Shown: positions 21,185 through 43,005 of the stretch, piece by piece
How the letters are laid out: each line of letters starts with the position of its first letter
Numbering within the stretch: position 1 is the first letter of the stretch
NCBI RefSeq assembly: GCF_009931435.1
Contig: NZ_CP043414.1
Strand: one strand, 5' to 3'
Source of the DNA: Escherichia coli
GTDB taxonomy: Bacteria; Pseudomonadota; Gammaproteobacteria; Enterobacterales; Enterobacteriaceae
Length of the DNA: 64,000 nt
Program-made: the position numbers and the translations under genes
Notes under the pieces: model-generated
The model's database searches: none
The model's input: the letters and a program-made list of their open reading frames with translations, nothing else
Told to the model about the DNA's origin: nothing

Positions 21185-21420
21185 TTTTTGCCGGAGAGCG
21201 GCTCCGCCTTATCCGGCCGACATAGATTTATTCCTGTTCACGTACAGATTGTCGGATGCGGCGTAAACGCCTTATCCGACTTGGATTCTCGTAGGCCGGA
21301 CAAGACGCGAAGCGTCGCCTCCGGCATGGTGCGCCGAATGTCGGATGCGGCGTAAACGCCTTATCCGACCTACATTTCCGTAGGCCGGACAAGACGCAAA
21401 GCGTCGCCTCCGGCATGGGT
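21185..21420. repeat. Cluster of REP (BIME) elements between gabP and gabT
   Basis: Repeated tcggatgcggcgtaaacgccttatccgac and gtaggccggacaagacgc units in alternating orientation. Confidence 0.85.
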
Positions 21421-21426
21421 GCGGTG

Positions 21427-35800: not shown

Positions 35801-37396
35801 TTAATGACGCCACGGGATAATGTTACGCCAGTTAAACTTGAAGGGGGGGGCCGGATTACCGATAGCGCGACATTAACTATCGGAAATGGCGTCGATACGA
35901 CGCTTGCCGACCTGACGGCTGCCAGCCGGGGCAGTGTCTGGCTTAACAGCAATAATTCCTGTGCAGGCACCAGCAACTGCGAATATAGAGTAAACAGTTT
36001 GCTCCTCAACGACGGTGATGTTTATTTATCAGCACAAACAGCAGCGCCTGCCACAACTAACGGTATCTACAATACGCTGACCACCAGTGAACTTTCCGGC
36101 AGCGGTAATTTCTACCTGCATACCAACGTTGCAGGCTCCCGGGGCGATCAACTGGTCGTCAACAACAACGCCACTGGCAATTTTAACATCTTTGTTCAGG
36201 ATACCGGCGTCAGCCCTCAGTCTGACGACGCGATGACGCTGGTGAAAACAGGGGGAGGGGATGCTTCGTTTACGCTGGGTAATACCGGCGGTTTCGTTGA
36301 TCTTGGGACCTATGAGTATGTCCTGAAAAGCGACGGCAACAGCAACTGGAACCTGACCAATGATGTCAAACCCAACCCGGCCCCCAACCCAAATCCGAAA
36401 CCGGATCCAAAACCAGACCCAAAACCGGATCCGAAACCAGACCCGACTCCCGATCCAACGCCGACACCCGTCCCGGAGAAACGCATCACGCCTTCTACGG
36501 CAGCCGTACTCAATATGGCAGCAACATTACCGTTGGTCTTTGATGCTGAGCTAAACAGTATTCGCGAGCGGTTGAACATAATGAAAGCGAGTCCACACAA
36601 CAATAATGTCTGGGGGACGACGTATAACACCCGTAATAATGTCACCACCGATGCGGGTGCCGGGTTTGAGCAGACGCTGACCGGAATGACGGTGGGGATC
36701 GATAGCCGTAATGGTATTCCTGAGGGGATTGCTACGCTGGGCGCTTTTATGGGTTATTCCCATTCACATATCGGTTTTGATCGTGGAGGACATGGCAGTG
36801 TGGGCAGTTATTCTCTGGGGGGCTATGTCAGCTGGGAACATGAAAGTGGTTTCTATCTGGACGGTATCGTGAAGCTGAACCGCTTTGAAAGTAACGTAGC
36901 CGGTAAAATGAGCAGCGGTGGAGCCGCCAACGGCAGTTATCGCAGCAACGGGCTGGGCGGTCACATTGAAACCGGGATGCGATTTACCGATGGTAACTGG
37001 AACCTGACGCCGTATGCATCGTTAACGGGGTTCACCGCTGATAACCCCGAATATCATTTATCCAATGGTATGGAATCGAAATCAGTCGATACCCGCAGTA
37101 TATATCGTGAACTGGGCGCAACGCTGAGTTACAACATGCGTCTGGGGAACGGCATGGAAGTTGAGCCGTGGCTGAAGGCGGCTGTGCGCAAAGAATTTGT
37201 CGATGATAACCGGGTGAAAGTGAATAATGACGGTAATTTTGTCAATGATTTGTCGGGCAGACGTGGAATATACCAGGCAGGTATTAAAGCCTCATTCAGC
37301 AGTTCGTTAAGCGGGCATCTCGGGGTGGGGTATAGCCATGGTGCCGGTGTGGAATCCCCGTGGAACGCGGTGGCTGGTGTGAACTGGTCGTTCTGA
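32822..37396 (+). CDS. ypjA: AIDA-I-type autotransporter adhesin YpjA
   Basis: ORF 32735..37396; start placed at MNRTSRYYFRRSVLSLLISALIYAPPGMA signal peptide after GAGG RBS; repetitive passenger, Pro-rich linker, C-terminal beta-barrel ending ...NWSF. Confidence 0.85.
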   Translation: MNRTSRYYFRRSVLSLLISALIYAPPGMAAFTSNVIGVVNDETVDGVQKVDERGTTNNTHIINHGRQDVYGGVSNRSLIESGGYQDVGGHNNFVGQANNTTINGGRQTIHDGGISTGTIIESGNQDVYTGGISNGTTIKGGNSHISGGTANGTIIDGGSQRVTTQGHVDSTTINKSGSQDITQGSLATNTTINGGRQYVEQSTVETTTIKNGGEQRVYESYALDTTIEGGTQSLNNKSTAKYTQIYSGGTQIVDYTSTSDVIEIYSGGVLDVSGGTATNVTQHDGVILKTNTNGTTVSGTNSEGAFSIHNHVADNVLLENGGHLDINAYGSANKTIIKDKGTMSVLTNAKADATRIDNGGVMDVAGNATNTIINGGTQNINNHGIATGTNINSGTQNIKSGGKADTTNISSGSRQVVEKDGTATGSNISAGGSLIVYTGGIAHGVNQETGSALVANTGAGTDIEGYNKLSHFTITGGEANYVVLENTGELTVVAKTTAKNTTVDAGGKLIVQKEAKTDTTRLNNGGVLEVQDGGEAKHVEQQSGGALIASTTSGTLIEGTNSFGDAFYIRNSEAKNVVLENAGSLTVVTGSRAVDTIINANGKMDVYGKDVGTVLNSAGTQTIYASATSDKANIKGGKQTVYGLATEANIESGEQIVDGGSTDKTHIKGGTQTVQNYGKAINTDIVSGLQQIMANGTAEGSIINGGSQVVNEGGLAENSVLNDGGTLDVREKGSATGIQQSSQGALVATTRATRVTGTRADGVAFSIEQDAANNILLANGGVLTVESDTTSAKTQVNAGGREIVKTKATATGTMLTGGEQIVEGVANETTINDGGIQTVSANGEAVKTTINEGGTLTVNDNGKATDIIQNSGAALQTSTANGIEISGTHQYGTFSIAGNLATNVLLENGGNLLVLAGTEARDSTVGNGGAMQNLGQDFATKVNSGGQYTLGRSKDEFQALARAEDLQVAGGTAIVYAGTLADASVSGATGSLSLMTPRDNVTPVKLEGGGRITDSATLTIGNGVDTTLADLTAASRGSVWLNSNNSCAGTSNCEYRVNSLLLNDGDVYLSAQTAAPATTNGIYNTLTTSELSGSGNFYLHTNVAGSRGDQLVVNNNATGNFNIFVQDTGVSPQSDDAMTLVKTGGGDASFTLGNTGGFVDLGTYEYVLKSDGNSNWNLTNDVKPNPAPNPNPKPDPKPDPKPDPKPDPTPDPTPTPVPEKRITPSTAAVLNMAATLPLVFDAELNSIRERLNIMKASPHNNNVWGTTYNTRNNVTTDAGAGFEQTLTGMTVGIDSRNGIPEGIATLGAFMGYSHSHIGFDRGGHGSVGSYSLGGYVSWEHESGFYLDGIVKLNRFESNVAGKMSSGGAANGSYRSNGLGGHIETGMRFTDGNWNLTPYASLTGFTADNPEYHLSNGMESKSVDTRSIYRELGATLSYNMRLGNGMEVEPWLKAAVRKEFVDDNRVKVNNDGNFVNDLSGRRGIYQAGIKASFSSSLSGHLGVGYSHGAGVESPWNAVAGVNWSF

Positions 37397-37406
37397 CCAT
37401 CAACGA

Positions 37407-37430
37407 AAAAGCCCACATCTGTGGGCTTTC
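37407..37430 (+). terminator. Rho-independent terminator after ypjA
   Basis: aaaaagcccacatctgtgggctttc: 6 bp GC-rich stem, 4 nt loop, T-rich tail. Confidence 0.7.
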
Positions 37431-38146
37431 ATATCACCAGGAGCCGCGGCTCCTTTGCGTATCCTTTTATGTCTCCTCACCGTCTGGTCGGTGTCTTGCT
37501 GAGACTTCTAACTTCCTGTTTTTGTTGGTGTTGTCCTTGTACCGTCCAATCATGATGCTGGCGTCTCTGTAATTAGTTATGTAATAACATGATAAATAAA
37601 TGGTTATTTGATTTAATAATAATTTAGGGTGCTAAAAAGGAACCATTAAATCTAAACTATCTGGTATTGCCGCATTTCTTATCAACCATATGATGGGCAA
37701 GATAGCACAACCATCAGTTCAGCTACCATCAGGGAGTTGAATTCAAAGTCATCACAACAAAACCCTCTCTGTTTGCTATAAACGAGATGAAGATTGGTAT
37801 TGCCACCACTACCGTATCAATCAGGGCGAAAGGTTGAGCTAAAGAGGGTAAAGCTCGACCTCACGTCTTAGAAAATGCTGTCCTTCAAACATGATTAGTG
37901 CAGAATTTAAACTGATTACTCGTAATGCCCTAATAAATATGAATATTTTAAAATAGGTTAAAACAGCCAAACTTATAGCACTTTTTGCTAAAGTCCTTAA
38001 AGCCTCGTCCTGTCACCTCATCCACGCTGCTCTTCGCCATCTGTGTAAAAAATGCTCAATAACGAAATAATTCCGGCAAAGCAGGTGTTGATTGTCATAC
38101 GCGATATTCGAATAATAACTCCATCAAAACAACAATGGAGAAATAT

Positions 38147-38347
38147 ATGGCAGTAAGAAGATTTATTCGTTTACCTGAAGTTATCAACAGAACTGGCTAT
38201 GGCAAAACATGGATTTATCACCTTATCAAGCGGGGTGAATTCCCTGAACCTATAAAGACTGGTGCAAGAACAATAGCATTTATTGAAAGTGAGATTGATG
38301 AATGGATTGAAGCTATTATTCGAAACTCACGCCAGAACGCAGCATAA
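38147..38347 (+). CDS. alpA: AlpA-family (excisionase-like) transcriptional regulator
   Basis: FIRLPEVINRTGYGKTWIYHLIKRGEFPEPIKTGARTIAFIESEIDEWIEA matches AlpA/phage regulatory HTH pattern. Confidence 0.8.
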   Translation: MAVRRFIRLPEVINRTGYGKTWIYHLIKRGEFPEPIKTGARTIAFIESEIDEWIEAIIRNSRQNAA

Positions 38348-38416
38348 AAACAGAAATAGGATCTCGTGTCGAACAGATATCTGTTCGCTCAGGGAATCTT
38401 ATTACCCTAAACAATA

Positions 38417-38719
38417 ATGGAGAAGAGTATGAAGATAGAACTTATTACGACAAAACAGTTTATTGAACAAGCCGAATGTTATTTCAGGAACTATATAGAC
38501 GGATTGCGGAGGAATGCACCAGATGATTTTTATTATTTTCTCAACAATAAATACAATATGAATGACATTATGGAAAGTATCATTAAAAAAACGAGATATC
38601 ATTTTTATGATGACACAGAAGAAGGTAAAAGGAATCGGATTTATGGAGAAGTAAGCCACAGTAAGGTAAAGCAACACCTTCGTCAGCTTTGGATTGTCTA
38701 TAAATGTGTATACCGCTAA
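38417..38719 (+). CDS. Hypothetical protein
   Basis: 100 aa ORF downstream of alpA, same strand; no recognisable motif. Confidence 0.4.
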   Translation: MEKSMKIELITTKQFIEQAECYFRNYIDGLRRNAPDDFYYFLNNKYNMNDIMESIIKKTRYHFYDDTEEGKRNRIYGEVSHSKVKQHLRQLWIVYKCVYR

Positions 38720-38771
38720 TACTTATACAAATATTTTGCTATTCCAATATTAAACTAAATAGGAAATAAAA

Positions 38772-39068
38772 ATGAATACATTTAAAAATAAATCTACTGA
38801 AATCTTTTATGTTGTGTCCTTGCATATCTACGCGGAGCTTTTTAACTCAAAGGATAAAACGACCAGCAATATGATTATAACGCATGTAATGGATCATGAG
38901 TTTGTCTGTAGGCTAATCGATCTGGCGATGAGAAATGCTGAGAAGCATCTTCTGAAAAAAGCATGGAAAAAGAACGCTGCTGAAAAACTGTCTGAGGTGG
39001 ATTTTAAAGGGGTTAAGCAGGCATTAGCTAAAATGCATTACACTGTTCTGGCGGAATCAATATGTTGA
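38772..39068 (+). CDS. Hypothetical protein
   Basis: 98 aa ORF, same strand as alpA cluster; no recognisable motif. Confidence 0.4.
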   Translation: MNTFKNKSTEIFYVVSLHIYAELFNSKDKTTSNMIITHVMDHEFVCRLIDLAMRNAEKHLLKKAWKKNAAEKLSEVDFKGVKQALAKMHYTVLAESIC

Positions 39069-39116
39069 TATGTTCTGACGTCTATCGGCCCCTTCTTGGG
39101 GCTGATAATCGGATGA

Positions 39117-39599
39117 TTAAGGTGCTATTCTGCGGCGAGCTTTGTTTTGCTGCTGTTCAATGGTTGAGGCTATGGTCGATAGTTGCTCAAGACTCTGTTC
39201 AATTGAACGCTGGAACGCAACAGCGGCTTCAGTACGTTGTTTTATGACCAAGGCTACTATTTCTTCATCGCTCTTTTCTGAAATGGCCTTACGGTATAAT
39301 ACGCGTTCGTTAAATAAATCGAGATTACCAGTTGGTCTCGCTGATGTATTAGCTTTTGAACTGCTGATGGGATTTAACTCGTCAATAAAGTATTCAATAA
39401 GAGATTCTCTCTTCTTTTCAAGTCTGCGAAGTTCGGTATGTGCAGATTTAAATTTCTGAGCCTTAACTAATGGAATATCATCGGAACGCAGTTTGCGATA
39501 TTCATTTCTGTATTCTTCTATCGAAATATGATTTTATAGTTCTTTGACTGTATTTACACATTCGATTAAATCACTGTTGTCTGTTTTTACTTTTCTCAT
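39117..39599 (-). pseudogene. Hypothetical gene interrupted by an in-frame TAA (codon 22)
   Basis: Minus-strand frame ATG at 39599 reads MRKVKTDNSDLIECVNTVKEL-stop then 138 further sense codons with no Met or stop until 39117. Confidence 0.35.
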
Positions 39600-39753
39600 A
39601 AGAAATACCTCGTAAATAAAATGGTTGATATATTTATATTACGAGATATGGTGTTAGTGTCAAATTAGCTCTTTAGCTCTCTTGGCAAGAAAATACCTTT
39701 AATGCAATCGTAGTTTATTACGGTGATTTTTTTAACCTGTTTCCCGCTGGTAA

Positions 39754-40311
39754 TTAATTTTTATTATTCACTGGTTTCTTTTTTTCCTTCAAGTAATAAG
39801 TTTTCATGAAAGTCAAACGATCACCATTAAACATATAGTCTGGATTAATAAAATAATAGTTTTGTATCATGGTCTCAGCAATAAATTTCTTGTCAGCAAG
39901 TTCTTTCATCCCTTTGAAATATGTCGTTCTTGATATTTTTACAATCTCTTGATCAACAATATCGAATGACATTAATATCGTATCTGTATCTTTATTGTCT
40001 CTAATAGCAAGATACAGTATCTTAAATACTTTCTTACCTGATGAGGATAAACCCTCAATAGCTGATACGCCATCCACATAAAGTTTCACGAACTGTGTCT
40101 TGTCTACTTCCATTGACTGAAAGAAACCACCATGTCCAACCTGTTCTCCTGTATTTTCATTTACTACGGCTAAGCGATCTTTTCCTGTTGTGATACGTCT
40201 GATACCTGTTTTTGTATGTATATTTGTATCATTAAGGAATGGGTTTTTTACATGGCGAGGTAGACCTCTTCTTGATTTCTTTACTTCCGTTTGTATTTTA
40301 TTTTCTATCAT
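39754..40311 (-). CDS. Hypothetical protein, possibly DNA-binding or replication-associated
   Basis: 185 aa basic ORF adjacent to a highly structured repeat-containing intergenic region; function not recognisable by eye. Confidence 0.5.
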   Translation of the reverse strand: MIENKIQTEVKKSRRGLPRHVKNPFLNDTNIHTKTGIRRITTGKDRLAVVNENTGEQVGHGGFFQSMEVDKTQFVKLYVDGVSAIEGLSSSGKKVFKILYLAIRDNKDTDTILMSFDIVDQEIVKISRTTYFKGMKELADKKFIAETMIQNYYFINPDYMFNGDRLTFMKTYYLKEKKKPVNNKN

Positions 40312-40721
40312 GATATTTACTCCTTTATTTTTTTAGTTATACATTTAAGTAAATACTATATTTTGTGTGCAAGTCAATACTTAAAATTTATATTTTTTAA
40401 AATAACTAACACTTGATGTTTTTACGTATAAAACTTGTAGTGCTACAGAATATATACAAATAACACTTTATTATTTTTATTTGAGAATAGTTATCAACTT
40501 AAGTACCGGGATTCGGGACTTTAACTCCCGAGAGTGCGTACTTTGTTTTAAGCTATAGCTGGCTTGAGAGCAGTTTTCTTCTTCATTATTCAAATAGCGA
40601 AGCTTTGGATGACATTTTAAAGAATGTAATATTGAAAATAGTTCTTCTTTTTAGTTTATTGGTGCCTTATCAAAATGGCACCAGTGGTGTTATCTGTTTT
40701 ATTTTTCCGACTATGTTATTA

Positions 40722-40758
40722 CAGCGAAGTGATTGTGTGGAACAATCACGAATCGCTG
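40722..40758. repeat. 37 bp near-palindromic element copy 1 (CAGCG-AA-GTGATTGT-N5-ACAATCAC-GAAT-CGCTG)
   Basis: Read directly; perfect 8 bp inner inverted repeat plus outer 5 bp arms. Confidence 0.7.
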
Positions 40759-40860
40759 CTTTTATTGTGAGAGCTTAATTAATTTTTCTTTTACTTTATA
40801 TGCGTCTTCGACGCGATCTTTTTTTGGATAAATCCATCATTAACAGGGGCAAGCCCTGTC

Positions 40861-40897
40861 CAGCAAAGTGATTGTCGGCAACAATCACGAAATGCTG
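40861..40897. repeat. 37 bp near-palindromic element copy 2 (CAGCA-AA-GTGATTGT-N5-ACAATCAC-GAAA-TGCTG)
   Basis: Same architecture as copy 1; outer arms changed on both sides so pairing is preserved. Confidence 0.7.
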
Positions 40898-41227
40898 CTA
40901 CTAAAGATATAGTTTTCCTATACGTTTAAGAGCAAATGCTATATGTCAGATGGGGAATGCTATGTTTAAACATAGGATCTGAATTAAAAGTTAAAAGGAA
41001 AATAGATCTAACTATGTTCGAATACATTCGCTTATTACCTCATAGTAGTAAAATAAAATACAAAATGTCAGTTTTAGGGCGTAGCCGTGCGTAAGCATAG
41101 AGATAAATATCTTTTCAAAAAGAAGTTTAAAAATAATAAGTAAAAGCATGAAGAAAACACAGATATATTTGATTTTTACGCTTACGATAGAGTATTAAGC
41201 AGTAATAAATAAAAAAGGGAAAACACA

Positions 41228-41497
41228 ATGAACAATATCAAAATGATTACGCTCTTCTATCCCCATGAAAAAACACCATTTATGATCTGTATTGTAAACA
41301 AAGTAGAAGATACAGAACTTGGATTGAAATTAACTCTTGAAAACGGCAACAACATTTGTGTCAATAATTATAGTCATTATCTGTTATCAGAGTCTGTAAA
41401 TCGTTGTAATAAAGAAAGGTTAAAGAGTATTTATATTCGCTTGGTTTCAGAACTCACGCAGATGAGTGAAGAAACTATAAAATCGCAGATGTTTTAA
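41228..41497 (+). CDS. Hypothetical protein
   Basis: 89 aa ORF, first of four co-oriented genes. Confidence 0.45.
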   Translation: MNNIKMITLFYPHEKTPFMICIVNKVEDTELGLKLTLENGNNICVNNYSHYLLSESVNRCNKERLKSIYIRLVSELTQMSEETIKSQMF

Positions 41498-41579
41498 AAG
41501 TTATATTGAACATAATAAATATTTTTGATATTACGGTCAGTTGCATGGTATTAAATAAAAGAATAACAGGAAAAATATC

Positions 41580-41984
41580 ATGCGAAAAATAAAAACAAAA
41601 ATCTACTTGCCTACAGCTTTAACAGGAAACATGGATAAACACTATATCCCTGTTCTAGAGGATTTAAGAAAAGCGATATACAGCGACAGAATGTTATCAA
41701 GGCTTGCAGATAACGGTAGTATTGTTATCCATAGTTCAGTTGGGTATCCGGTTGCTAAATACAAAAACACGGGGATTAGCATAGGTATAGAACCATTGAA
41801 TCCAATGATAAGACAAGATCTGACTCTTGGATATATCGTGGTCGTCAGAAACGGGAAATCATCACAGGAGATTAATGGTTTACTTAACAGGTCATTGCCA
41901 AAAGCAATAAGCACTTTTAAGGATCACATCAATGAATATGAAGCAGTAAAAAGTAAAATGCGACAACAAACTATGATCTGGTAA
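41580..41984 (+). CDS. Hypothetical protein
   Basis: 134 aa ORF, 82 bp after preceding gene. Confidence 0.5.
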   Translation: MRKIKTKIYLPTALTGNMDKHYIPVLEDLRKAIYSDRMLSRLADNGSIVIHSSVGYPVAKYKNTGISIGIEPLNPMIRQDLTLGYIVVVRNGKSSQEINGLLNRSLPKAISTFKDHINEYEAVKSKMRQQTMIW

Positions 41985-42021
41985 AATATTTAATCTGATA
42001 ACTTCAGGAGGAGGATGAGCG

Positions 42022-43005
42022 ATGGAAGGTAAGTTAATTTTTTGTTCCGATGCAATACTACGGTTTCAGTCCGATTACGATGAAACCGCTGCCGTTCCAT
42101 TGCTATCCATCCAGAACGTCATAGCCGATACCGATCCGTTCTTTCTTCTCCGTTTCTTCCACCATACCGTTCTGATTGAAGAAGGAACAACGCTGGCAAG
42201 TATCTTTCTGGCAATAGAACCGTGGAAGGCTTTGTTAGCGGCTTATCTGGACAGAGATGTTGGTGCTTATATAGATGAGGTAAGAAAACCGTCCGGGCCA
42301 ACGACATGGGATATTGAATGGATTGGGATTGATCGTCGTAGCATGGTTTACCGCGCTTATAAACGTCAGGAGATGCAGGATGGAGAGGATTTTTCTGACT
42401 ATTTAAACCGGGAACGCGTTCTGACCGATGAATTTGAAATTGAAAGTGGCTGTGAGGCTTCTGGCTACATTAAAGGTGATAAAGAACGCTGGAGCATCAG
42501 TGGTGATGTTCACGAGATAAAGAATCTGCCTGTAATCCTCTATAGCAAACAGACATTGATGACTTCACCGAAAGACGGTTTGCTGAAGAAAAACGTATCG
42601 GGTGTGAAGAGTTCCAAGCACAGTTGCTTCGTTTATGGCGATACCTCGTTTTCATTGAGAGAGGTTATGGAAGCCATCTACATTAGCGGGCTGTTCTTCT
42701 ATGCGCCAAGAGACGCCGCCAGTAGTCTTGATGCGCTGAAAGCGAGTGTGGCTGGACTGGAAGACGAACTGACCGAGGTGCCTGAAACAGAATCGGATAA
42801 TAATGAAACAGATGAAGAACCTACCATCGTCGTAGCCGACGGTGCTTTTGATTCGCTCGCTGCTCACATGGAGTCTGAAAAAGCGGAGTGGCAATACATT
42901 AAGAAGTTGTGCCAGCAAGATAGCGAGCTGCCCATACGTATTGGTAGTATCAGAATAGCTGAGCCTGCGGAGCTATGTATTGGCGGGAAAATCTTACATG
43001 AATAG
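42022..43005 (+). CDS. Hypothetical protein with acidic C-terminal segment
   Basis: 327 aa ORF, 37 bp after preceding gene; locally higher GC than neighbours. Confidence 0.55.
   Translation: MEGKLIFCSDAILRFQSDYDETAAVPLLSIQNVIADTDPFFLLRFFHHTVLIEEGTTLASIFLAIEPWKALLAAYLDRDVGAYIDEVRKPSGPTTWDIEWIGIDRRSMVYRAYKRQEMQDGEDFSDYLNRERVLTDEFEIESGCEASGYIKGDKERWSISGDVHEIKNLPVILYSKQTLMTSPKDGLLKKNVSGVKSSKHSCFVYGDTSFSLREVMEAIYISGLFFYAPRDAASSLDALKASVAGLEDELTEVPETESDNNETDEEPTIVVADGAFDSLAAHMESEKAEWQYIKKLCQQDSELPIRIGSIRIAEPAELCIGGKILHE

Follow-up and report, generated by a model that had tools for sequence, protein, structure and literature searches.

The window analysed here is a stretch of 64,000 nucleotides of Escherichia coli DNA, and it carries on its plus strand an intact ypjA gene, in which a short tandem repeat forms part of a longer proline-rich tract. 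The features of the gene to which we refer below, given in window positions, are the following.

32816..37396, plus strand: ypjA/ehaD coding sequence, intact (ORF list, translation, Pfam, RefSeq annotation)
35990..36358, plus strand: pertactin-like C-terminal passenger (autochaperone) domain (PF03212, residues 1059-1181, E=2e-44)
36368..36475, plus strand: (X-Pro)18 proline-rich spacer KPNPAPNPNP(KPDP)4TPDPTPTPVP, 36 residues (translation, AF2)
36383..36394, plus strand: 12-bp unit CCCAACCCAAAT (PNPN in frame), present as a single copy in the window (allele comparison)
36398..36445, plus strand: KPDP array of four 12-bp units, in DNA terms two units of 24 bp, encoding (KPDP)4 (sequence, Tandem Repeats Finder)
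36491..36583, plus strand: predicted alpha-helix entering and plugging the barrel (ITPSTAAVLNMAATLPLVFDAELNSIRERLN...; AF2 helix 178-208, pLDDT ~90)
36605..37390, plus strand: 12-stranded outer-membrane beta-barrel, or translocator domain (PF03797, residues 1265-1504, E=2.5e-45)

The name ypjA, which a sequence-only reading had already given to the gene, agrees with the RefSeq annotation: in the best-matching genomes, which are 99.8% identical to the window at this locus, the gene is called ypjA (adhesin-like autotransporter YpjA/EhaD). The order of its neighbours, tRNA(CAT) and ypjCB, is the same in the window as in strain ST2747, and the gene is orthologous to K-12 ypjA, whose locus lies downstream of ileY and ypjC. 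The ORF lister began the frame at a TTG codon (32735); the start is likely ATG 32816 (MKFMNRT...) or ATG 32825 (MNRT...), the latter giving a signal peptide of 29 aa. A putative N-terminal Sec signal peptide, MNRTSRYYFRRSVLSLLISALIYAPPGMA, is seen in the translation, and the signal peptide of YpjA has been described as 29 aa long (PMC13101318).

Pfam finds nine AIDA repeats in the protein (PF16168 x9, E=7e-137), a Pertactin domain and an Autotransporter beta-domain, in the order AIDA x9, Pertactin, proline-rich tract and beta-domain. The pertactin-like domain, which contains an RGD motif, matches pertactin (1DAB) and IgA1 protease (3H09). In the AlphaFold2 (AF2) model the beta-helix rungs of the passenger end at query residue 133, and the barrel consists of 12 long strands, predicted with a pLDDT of ~90, that match the beta-domains of BrkA (3QQ2) and Vag8 (7AKV). 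A 12-strand barrel with a pore helix and an AIDA/pertactin-like beta-helical passenger place YpjA among the type Va (classical) autotransporters, as an adhesin of the AIDA type.

The four near-identical 12-bp units noticed in the sequence-only reading as encoding (KPDP)4 are found at 36398-36445 in the sequence itself, by Tandem Repeats Finder and in translation. They are, in order, AAACCGGATCCA, AAACCAGACCCA, AAACCGGATCCG and AAACCAGACCCG, and in the frame of the long plus-strand ORF they read KPDPKPDPKPDPKPDP. The units are identical at 9-11 of 12 positions pairwise; since units 1 and 3, and likewise 2 and 4, agree at 11/12 in alternation, the true period of the DNA is 24 bp. Tandem Repeats Finder reports 4.8 copies with 78% matches at period 12 (score 67) and 2.5 copies with 83% matches at period 24 (score 87). 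The array is one of only two tandem arrays within the 64-kb window, and when the codons of the ypjA ORF were shuffled 2000 times, at least three tandem identical tetrapeptides never resulted.

The array is embedded in a tract whose DNA has the form (CCN NNN)18, with periodicities of 6, 12 and 24 bp. The end of the X-Pro tract at 36475 lies slightly further than position 36470, where the repeat region had been closed before. In Pfam the tract has a compositional, sub-threshold match to PF05887 (PARP), no Rfam family reached significance around it, and a literature search for ypjA together with 'proline-rich' found nothing. An ORF on the opposite strand (36310-36648, 112 aa) was considered as a gene and rejected: it matches only KRTAP, a family of glycine-rich low complexity, and was taken as a mirror of the proline codons.

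The repeat had been placed between passenger and barrel, and this placement holds, with the Pertactin domain reaching to residue 1181, the beta-domain beginning at residue 1265 and the intervening tract modelled by AF2 at low confidence. The mean pLDDT of the model is 83, and just two segments, query residues 26-33 and 138-172, have values below 50. The second of these segments corresponds exactly to the X-Pro tract, whose lack of ordered structure is a prediction only, and it is flanked by confidently modelled parts, namely the beta-helix, helix 178-208 and the barrel. By Pfam and AlphaFold together, the tract follows the pertactin-like autochaperone domain that closes the passenger and precedes the pore helix. 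Low confidence over the tract is compatible with disorder of whatever kind. On one side of the spacer is the final beta-helix rung of the passenger and on the other the alpha-helix running through the outer-membrane barrel; we infer that, instead of folding into a globule, the spacer is an extended, charged stalk of the polyproline-II type, roughly 11 nm in length, and that it would keep the adhesive beta-helix away from the membrane surface.

Homologs in E. albertii, Citrobacter, Salmonella, Klebsiella and Leminorella also have a proline-rich segment ahead of the conserved RITPSTAAVLNMAA motif of the predicted helix, a motif kept in the Citrobacter, Salmonella, Klebsiella and Leminorella relatives. 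The proline-rich segments of these homologs are unrelated in sequence and in length. The exception is formed by the YejO relatives, in which there is no proline-rich stretch anywhere. When the last 478 aa of the protein were used as a query, scored over the best 8000 candidates by shared words, the matches were chiefly paralogs and fragments, with no full-length YpjA cluster among them, and they bear on family context alone.

Had copy number been the same in every allele, this would have spoken against a change of linker length, but E. coli ypjA alleles carry 18, 19 or 20 X-Pro pairs. Among the ypjA-positive complete genomes sampled, about 32% have 18 pairs (window type), about 50% have 19 (K-12 type) and about 14% have 20 (O157 type), percentages that were pooled from three rank-spread listings of 160 rows in all, which are overlapping samples of 2,525 records. 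At an identity of 99% or more, complete E. coli genomes gave 625 matches to the window-type allele, which spans 451 bp, 1266 to that of the K-12 type, spanning 457 bp, and 267 to that of the O157 type, spanning 463 bp. In a small but independent sample of 12 metagenome contigs, 18 pairs were found in five, 19 in two and 20 in five, with no other length within the range of 13-23 pairs that the pattern scan covered. Direct reading of the tract covered about 25 ypjA sequences; for the others the survey relies on alignment spans and identity bands.

In every ypjA allele read, the length of the tract is a multiple of 6 bp and proline stands at every second residue, in a register unbroken by substitution. 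Uninterrupted KPDP runs range from two to five units among alleles. Most differences between alleles are not of KPDP copy number: the common differences in length stem from a duplication of 12 bp (NPNP) and from one NP unit of 6 bp, both adjoining the KPDP array, and the remaining variation within the KPDP run is due to point substitutions. The 20-pair class arises where CCCAACCCAAAT is tandemly duplicated, as a perfect copy, in O157/O145-type alleles. The natural indel step is 6 bp, that is, one X-Pro pair, and not only 12 bp. We also observed two private variants. The first, (KPDP)5, occurs in a single genome among about 2,500, that of OkiPb01694, which differs from the (KPDP)4 allele of SCU-113 by one mismatch in 651 bp and a perfect tandem copy of AAACCGGATCCG. 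The second, in 027_SK3, shows no mismatches to K-12 and has lost CCAAAG between CCAAA direct repeats, a loss of 6 bp; both variants could in principle be assembly errors. Of the suggestion that such repeats are prone to slipped-strand change, one part stands, since in-frame length does vary and one 12-bp KPDP gain was found, but 'prone' overstates the behaviour of an imperfect repeat whose (KPDP)5 form is a singleton.

From these observations, we consider it likely that the KPDP repeats are the core of an X-Pro spacer in which rare slippage has produced a few stable, in-frame length alleles. Now and then, short direct repeats would slip during replication or recombine unequally, with gain or loss of X-Pro pairs; because whole pairs are gained or lost, the reading frame and the proline register are always kept, and because the repeats are imperfect, such events should be rare. 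The outcome would be a small set of old alleles with 18, 19 or 20 pairs, distributed by lineage and accompanied by sporadic private variants. The ypjA tract is a slowly evolving, in-frame length polymorphism, and neither a hypermutable or on-off switch nor a rapidly varying locus.

Several long (NP)n forms, in O55:H7 DEC5B, O139:H1 P15-25 and TB06052 (spans of 503-577 bp), were considered as extreme ypjA alleles and rejected. The three genomes whose context was checked all have them between ymgJ and minE, at the ycgV locus, and strain A10 has both ypjA and the ycgV-locus paralog; as they belong to a different locus, they were left out of the ypjA allele count. The paralog is like YpjA in its C-terminal architecture, in flanks that are >90% identical and in having, in the same place, an X-Pro tract that closes with ...DPTPDPTPTPVPEKR, and differs from it in a long (NP)n run of roughly 20 to 33 pairs, built of more homogeneous 6/12-bp units. 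Its spans across genomes are 437, 497, 503, 509, 515, 547, 560, 577 and 581 bp, and its tract is far more length-variable than that of ypjA. PGAP labels the paralog 'ypjA', a mislabel that inflates the apparent allele diversity of the gene.

Three other accounts of the variation have to be weighed against rare slippage in a spacer. If the array were a hypermutable repeat of the contingency type, frequent slipped-strand changes in KPDP number would generate mixed linker lengths that tune reach or permit escape from antibodies. The repeat is indeed in tandem with in-frame units, both private changes are of a single unit on otherwise identical backgrounds, and the paralog has many (NP)n lengths at the equivalent position. 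Yet a contingency locus would offer a long tract of perfect, homogeneous units, whereas the longest exact repeat in the KPDP array is 11 bp and its units are identical at only 9-11 of 12 positions; it would differ among close isolates, whereas only the two private variants were seen among about 2,500 genomes, (KPDP)5 in just one of them; and it would switch expression, which is impossible here since all changes are multiples of 6 bp in the coding frame. About 96% of the sampled rows fall into the three length classes, and the K-12 laboratory, O145:H28 and O157:H7 genomes each have a single length among the matches listed. We regard this account as very improbable. Old allelic divergence shuffled by homologous recombination, possibly including exchange with the ycgV-locus paralog, would leave the repeats with little mutational weight, and this is a possible, if tentative, alternative. 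The three common alleles are separated by 21-30 substitutions per 651 bp, many of them synonymous changes inside the tract, the KPNP version of the fourth unit, as (KPDP)3KPNP, is present on both 18- and 20-pair backgrounds, and the closeness of the paralog flanks to ypjA fits such exchange; against it, the two private indels lie on backgrounds with zero and one other differences in about 650 bp, both have short direct repeats at their borders, as is characteristic of slippage, and the insertion of the O157 type repeats CCCAACCCAAAT perfectly in tandem. Recombination between alleles, as opposed to repeated slippage, may nonetheless explain part of the pattern.

The tract might instead be functionally neutral, low-complexity filler in a cryptic and often decaying gene, its X-Pro register kept only by the 6-bp mutational unit. 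Sequence of ypjA is absent from 2,902 of 5,426 genomes, pseudogene alleles are frequent (through frameshifts, an internal stop and, within the tract itself, an insertion of IS1203), and the tract varies freely in sequence and length among species. With pseudogenes this frequent, the linker may be under weak selection only, and mutation could account for most of the pattern. Against neutrality, relatives in five genera have kept a proline-rich segment in precisely this place although its sequence has turned over completely, and the X-Pro register is unbroken in every ypjA allele read; this retention suggests constraint on the composition of the tract, if not on its length. We consider pure filler rather doubtful, a little more so than old divergence, and favour the slowly evolving spacer.

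The importance of the finding is modest. The tract could act as a simple typing marker, and changes in linker length would probably be tolerated in surface-display constructs based on YpjA. A more ambitious reading, that the X-Pro stalks of YpjA and of the ycgV-locus paralog are evolutionarily tuned rulers matched to the thickness of O-antigen or capsule, with slippage giving the raw variation, seems to us a long shot; if true, the adhesive beta-helix would just clear the O-antigen or capsule layer of its strain, on stalks of 18-20 pairs in YpjA and about 25 to 39 pairs in the paralog. The much more variable (NP)n tract of the paralog would be the better system for asking whether the length of an autotransporter stalk is under selection.

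A proline-rich spacer with in-frame length differences is ordinary for this class of protein. In Bordetella pertactin, the number of proline-rich repeats in regions 1 and 2 varies among alleles on a slow timescale, and region 2 is unresolved in the crystal (PMC8931430, PMC3966384). Region 2, (PQP)n, and region 1, (GGFGP)n, are like the YpjA tract in being proline-rich tandem repeats in an autotransporter passenger, and the YpjA tract follows directly on the Pfam Pertactin domain, which aligns to pertactin residues 430-534. The unit is PQP in pertactin and X-Pro or KPDP in YpjA; pertactin variation has been linked to immune and vaccine pressure, which has no known counterpart in YpjA; and the pertactin passenger is cleaved from its barrel. 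TibA, YpjA and YcgV belong to one phylogenetic group of biofilm-forming AIDA-type autotransporters (PMC9289746), and TibA, a self-associating autotransporter of ETEC, has a proline-rich domain (residues 627-677) between its junction/autochaperone region and its membrane-embedded domain (PMC3835316). That domain resembles the YpjA tract in position and differs from it in sequence. The proline-rich domain of TibA has been tied experimentally to function; we know of no such tie for that of YpjA. Lying after the autochaperone domain and before the barrel, and differing among alleles by in-frame units, the YpjA linker is a proline-rich spacer like pertactin region 2 and that of TibA, with a small and stable set of length alleles. 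The X-Pro spacers of the TonB type (Glu-Pro / Lys-Pro) are charged, alternating dipeptides thought to be extended and fairly rigid, a rod that spans distance instead of folding. TonB belongs to a different family and acts in the periplasm, whereas YpjA is at the cell surface. The two are not homologous; their likeness is one of composition and, presumably, of physical behaviour.

The window sequence and its translation bear out the four 12-bp KPDP-coding units that the sequence-only reading had placed in ypjA, and these units form the core of a longer proline-rich tract, which we count in X-Pro pairs.

32735-37396, + strand: ypjA ORF, intact, as bounded by the ORF lister (likely start at ATG 32816 or 32825)
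36368-36475, + strand: X-Pro tract KPNPAPNPNP(KPDP)4TPDPTPTPVP, 18 pairs in strict alternation, from the translation
36398-36445, + strand: KPDP array, AAACCGGATCCA AAACCAGACCCA AAACCGGATCCG AAACCAGACCCG, from the window sequence

The array, which reads KPDPKPDPKPDPKPDP in the frame of the long ORF, lies inside the span first proposed (36360-36470), and the tract ends slightly past it, at 36475. Tandem Repeats Finder reports 4.8 copies at period 12 (score 67) and 2.5 copies at period 24 (83% matches, score 87). Units 1 and 3, like units 2 and 4, are identical at 11 of 12 positions, adjacent units at 9-10 of 12; because alternate units are more alike than neighbours, the array at the DNA level consists of two imperfect 24-bp copies, and its longest exact repeat is 11 bp. 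Three tandem identical tetrapeptides arose in none of 2000 codon shuffles of the ORF. Nothing suggests a second feature at the tract, on the other strand or as RNA: an antisense ORF (36310-36648) gave only a glycine-rich low-complexity match, and no Rfam family was significant around the tract. The array is one of two tandem arrays in the 64-kb window; the other, at 21250-21423 (89-bp unit, 1.9 copies, 91% identity), includes a palindromic GCCGGATGCGGCGT-type sequence and, from its sequence, looks like an intergenic repeat of the REP/BIME type.

The best E. coli matches (99.8%) carry the annotation ypjA, 'adhesin-like autotransporter YpjA/EhaD', and the gene order tRNA(CAT), ypjCB, ypjA is common to the window and strain ST2747. 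Its domains are nine AIDA repeats, then Pertactin (residues 1059-1181) and an Autotransporter beta-domain (1265-1504); between the latter two, a Pro-repeat family gives a compositional match that stays below threshold. The segment N-terminal to the tract aligns with the passengers of pertactin and IgA1 protease, in their C-terminal part, and the segment C-terminal to it with the BrkA and Vag8 beta-domains, all of solved structure. In an AlphaFold2 model of the last 478 residues, built on 19 aligned sequences (mean pLDDT 83), beta-helix rungs extend to residue 133, and residues 178-208 form a confident helix ahead of a 12-stranded barrel; the tract occupies model residues 138-172, with pLDDT below 50. 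Domain order, structure alignments and model agree that the repeat is a linker between passenger and barrel, as had been claimed, and in the model it connects the autochaperone end of the passenger with the pore helix. The Pertactin domain of YpjA also carries an RGD tripeptide (AGSRGDQLVV, window ~36090-36100), as pertactin itself does.

Two observations concern the surroundings of the gene. ARAGORN calls a tRNA-Met with anticodon CAT at 29605-29680; since the counterpart in ST2747, at the matching site upstream of ypjCB, is annotated tRNA-Ile, the sequence probably represents ileY, whose CAT anticodon is read as Ile once modified. The 5 kb immediately 3' of ypjA (37400-42400) are poorly conserved, being covered to at least 80% in only 56 genomes, with only 92% identity in the top-ranked, widest-coverage matches. 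Matching regions carry annotations for RepL, DUF4756, H-NS-family and DUF6404 proteins, and ST2747 has P4-like primase/Icd/ash gene remnants in their place; the segment looks like a variable island adjoining ypjA.

A 451-bp query around the tract found matches in 2,524 of 5,426 complete E. coli genomes, the ypjA or paralog locus being absent from the other 2,902. Genomes of each length type were counted with allele-specific queries at a cut-off of at least 99% identity, which at these query sizes excludes a 6-bp gap.

Table. Length types of the ypjA tract (pooled rows: 160, from three overlapping rank-spread samples of one set of 2,525 records, the IS-truncated copy of strain F765 being listed once in each).
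Type; X-Pro pairs; span; genomes at >=99%; share of pooled rows
Window; 18; 451 bp; 625; 32%
K-12; 19; 457 bp; 1266; 50%
O157; 20; 463 bp; 267; 14%

The pattern was also scanned for independently in metagenome contigs, with 13-23 pairs allowed; 12 contigs came back, with 18 (n=5), 19 (n=2) or 20 (n=5) pairs. The predicted in-frame length polymorphism holds in a weak form, as 18, 19 and 20 pairs in multiples of 6 bp, and every listed K-12 laboratory derivative, O145:H28 strain and O157:H7 strain has the tract length typical of its group.

About 2% of the pooled rows were long forms (spans of 497-581 bp) in which the KPNP...KPDP part gives way to an (NP)n run some 20 to 33 pairs long. We rejected these as ypjA alleles: in A10, P15-25 and LSU61 the gene sits between ymgJ and minE, at the ycgV locus, and A10 has both genes. 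This paralog, labelled 'ypjA' by PGAP, encodes roughly 1,120-1,150 aa and lies outside the window (L015:3883-7251 in A10, L032:2383-5823 in P15-25, L033:2371-5763 in LSU61). Its spans of 437, 497, 503, 509, 515, 547, 560, 577 and 581 bp make its tract far more length-variable than that of ypjA proper, and 12 bp separate the copies of O55:H7 DEC5B and O157:H7 LSU61. The paralog shows the effect of a more homogeneous repeat at the matching protein position, and is the more interesting relative.

Read directly in about 25 ypjA sequences, the tract always has a length that is a multiple of 6 bp and proline at every second residue. Compared with the 18-pair type, the 20-pair O157/O145 type carries CCCAACCCAAAT (NPNP) a second time, as a perfect tandem copy lying upstream of (KPDP)4, which is itself unchanged; the K-12 type is (KPDP)3-NP-KPDP with different synonymous codons; further alleles have K to T or D to N changes, such as (KPDP)2-TPDP-NP-KPDP and (KPDP)3-KPNP. 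Copy number among alleles therefore does vary, from 2 to 5 uninterrupted KPDP units; point changes and the 6-bp NP unit account for most of this. OkiPb01694, the only genome with (KPDP)5, has an exact tandem copy of AAACCGGATCCG and one other base different in 651 from the (KPDP)4 allele of SCU-113; over 651 bp, 027_SK3 departs from K-12 only in having lost CCAAAG between CCAAA direct repeats. These appear to be two clean, recent single-unit events bearing the signature of slippage at short direct repeats.

The window copy of ypjA is intact, and many strains have a ypjA annotated as pseudogene (loci L002, L009, L010, L013, L016 and L029): O157:H7 N8B7-2, ST2747, SCU-113, OkiPb01694 and O145 RM8995 show frameshifts, 2012C-4227 an internal stop. 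In F765 (NZ_AP026082.1, L005:1-640) the IS3-family element IS1203 is inserted inside the tract (junction ...GGTTCA/GACCCGACTCCCGAG), removing the passenger and leaving the C-terminal part of the gene alone. Because ypjA is so often inactivated, relaxed selection on it is plausible.

We infer that the tract would form an extended, polyproline-II-like charged stalk that keeps the beta-helix off the membrane; at about 3.1 Å per residue, its 36 residues would span about 11 nm, or about 0.6 nm per X-Pro pair, and rare events of slipped replication or unequal recombination would shift its length. Allele differences of one or two pairs, about 5-10% of this length, are unlikely to have a functional effect.

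In E. albertii, relatives carry 15-16 X-Pro pairs whose sequence differs, and a set of partial homologs of 654 residues, about 72% identical to the query, has 9. In relatives from Citrobacter, Salmonella, Klebsiella and Leminorella, a Pro-rich segment of unrelated sequence occupies the matching site, right before the conserved RITPSTAAVLNMAA helix start, and YejO-type relatives have no Pro-rich segment there. In many relatives, then, position and composition are conserved, sequence and length are not. YpjA and YcgV, both without published structure, are grouped with AIDA-I, TibA and Ag43 as biofilm-forming autotransporters (PMC9289746); our literature search found no published description of polymorphism in the ypjA tract. 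On every criterion tested the tract departs from a contingency locus: such loci have perfect long repeats, vary among close relatives and switch expression through unit changes, whereas the YpjA tract has exact repeats of at most 11 bp, shows no variation between close relatives and cannot switch expression by its changes. It is a proline-rich spacer that evolves slowly; both the gene and this kind of spacer are already known, and the case is an ordinary one. Its closest precedents are the proline-rich repeat regions of pertactin, whose repeat numbers vary by allele on a slow timescale and whose R2 is left unresolved by the crystal structure (PMC3966384, PMC8931430), and the proline-rich domain of TibA, which follows the junction region and precedes the membrane domain (PMC3835316).
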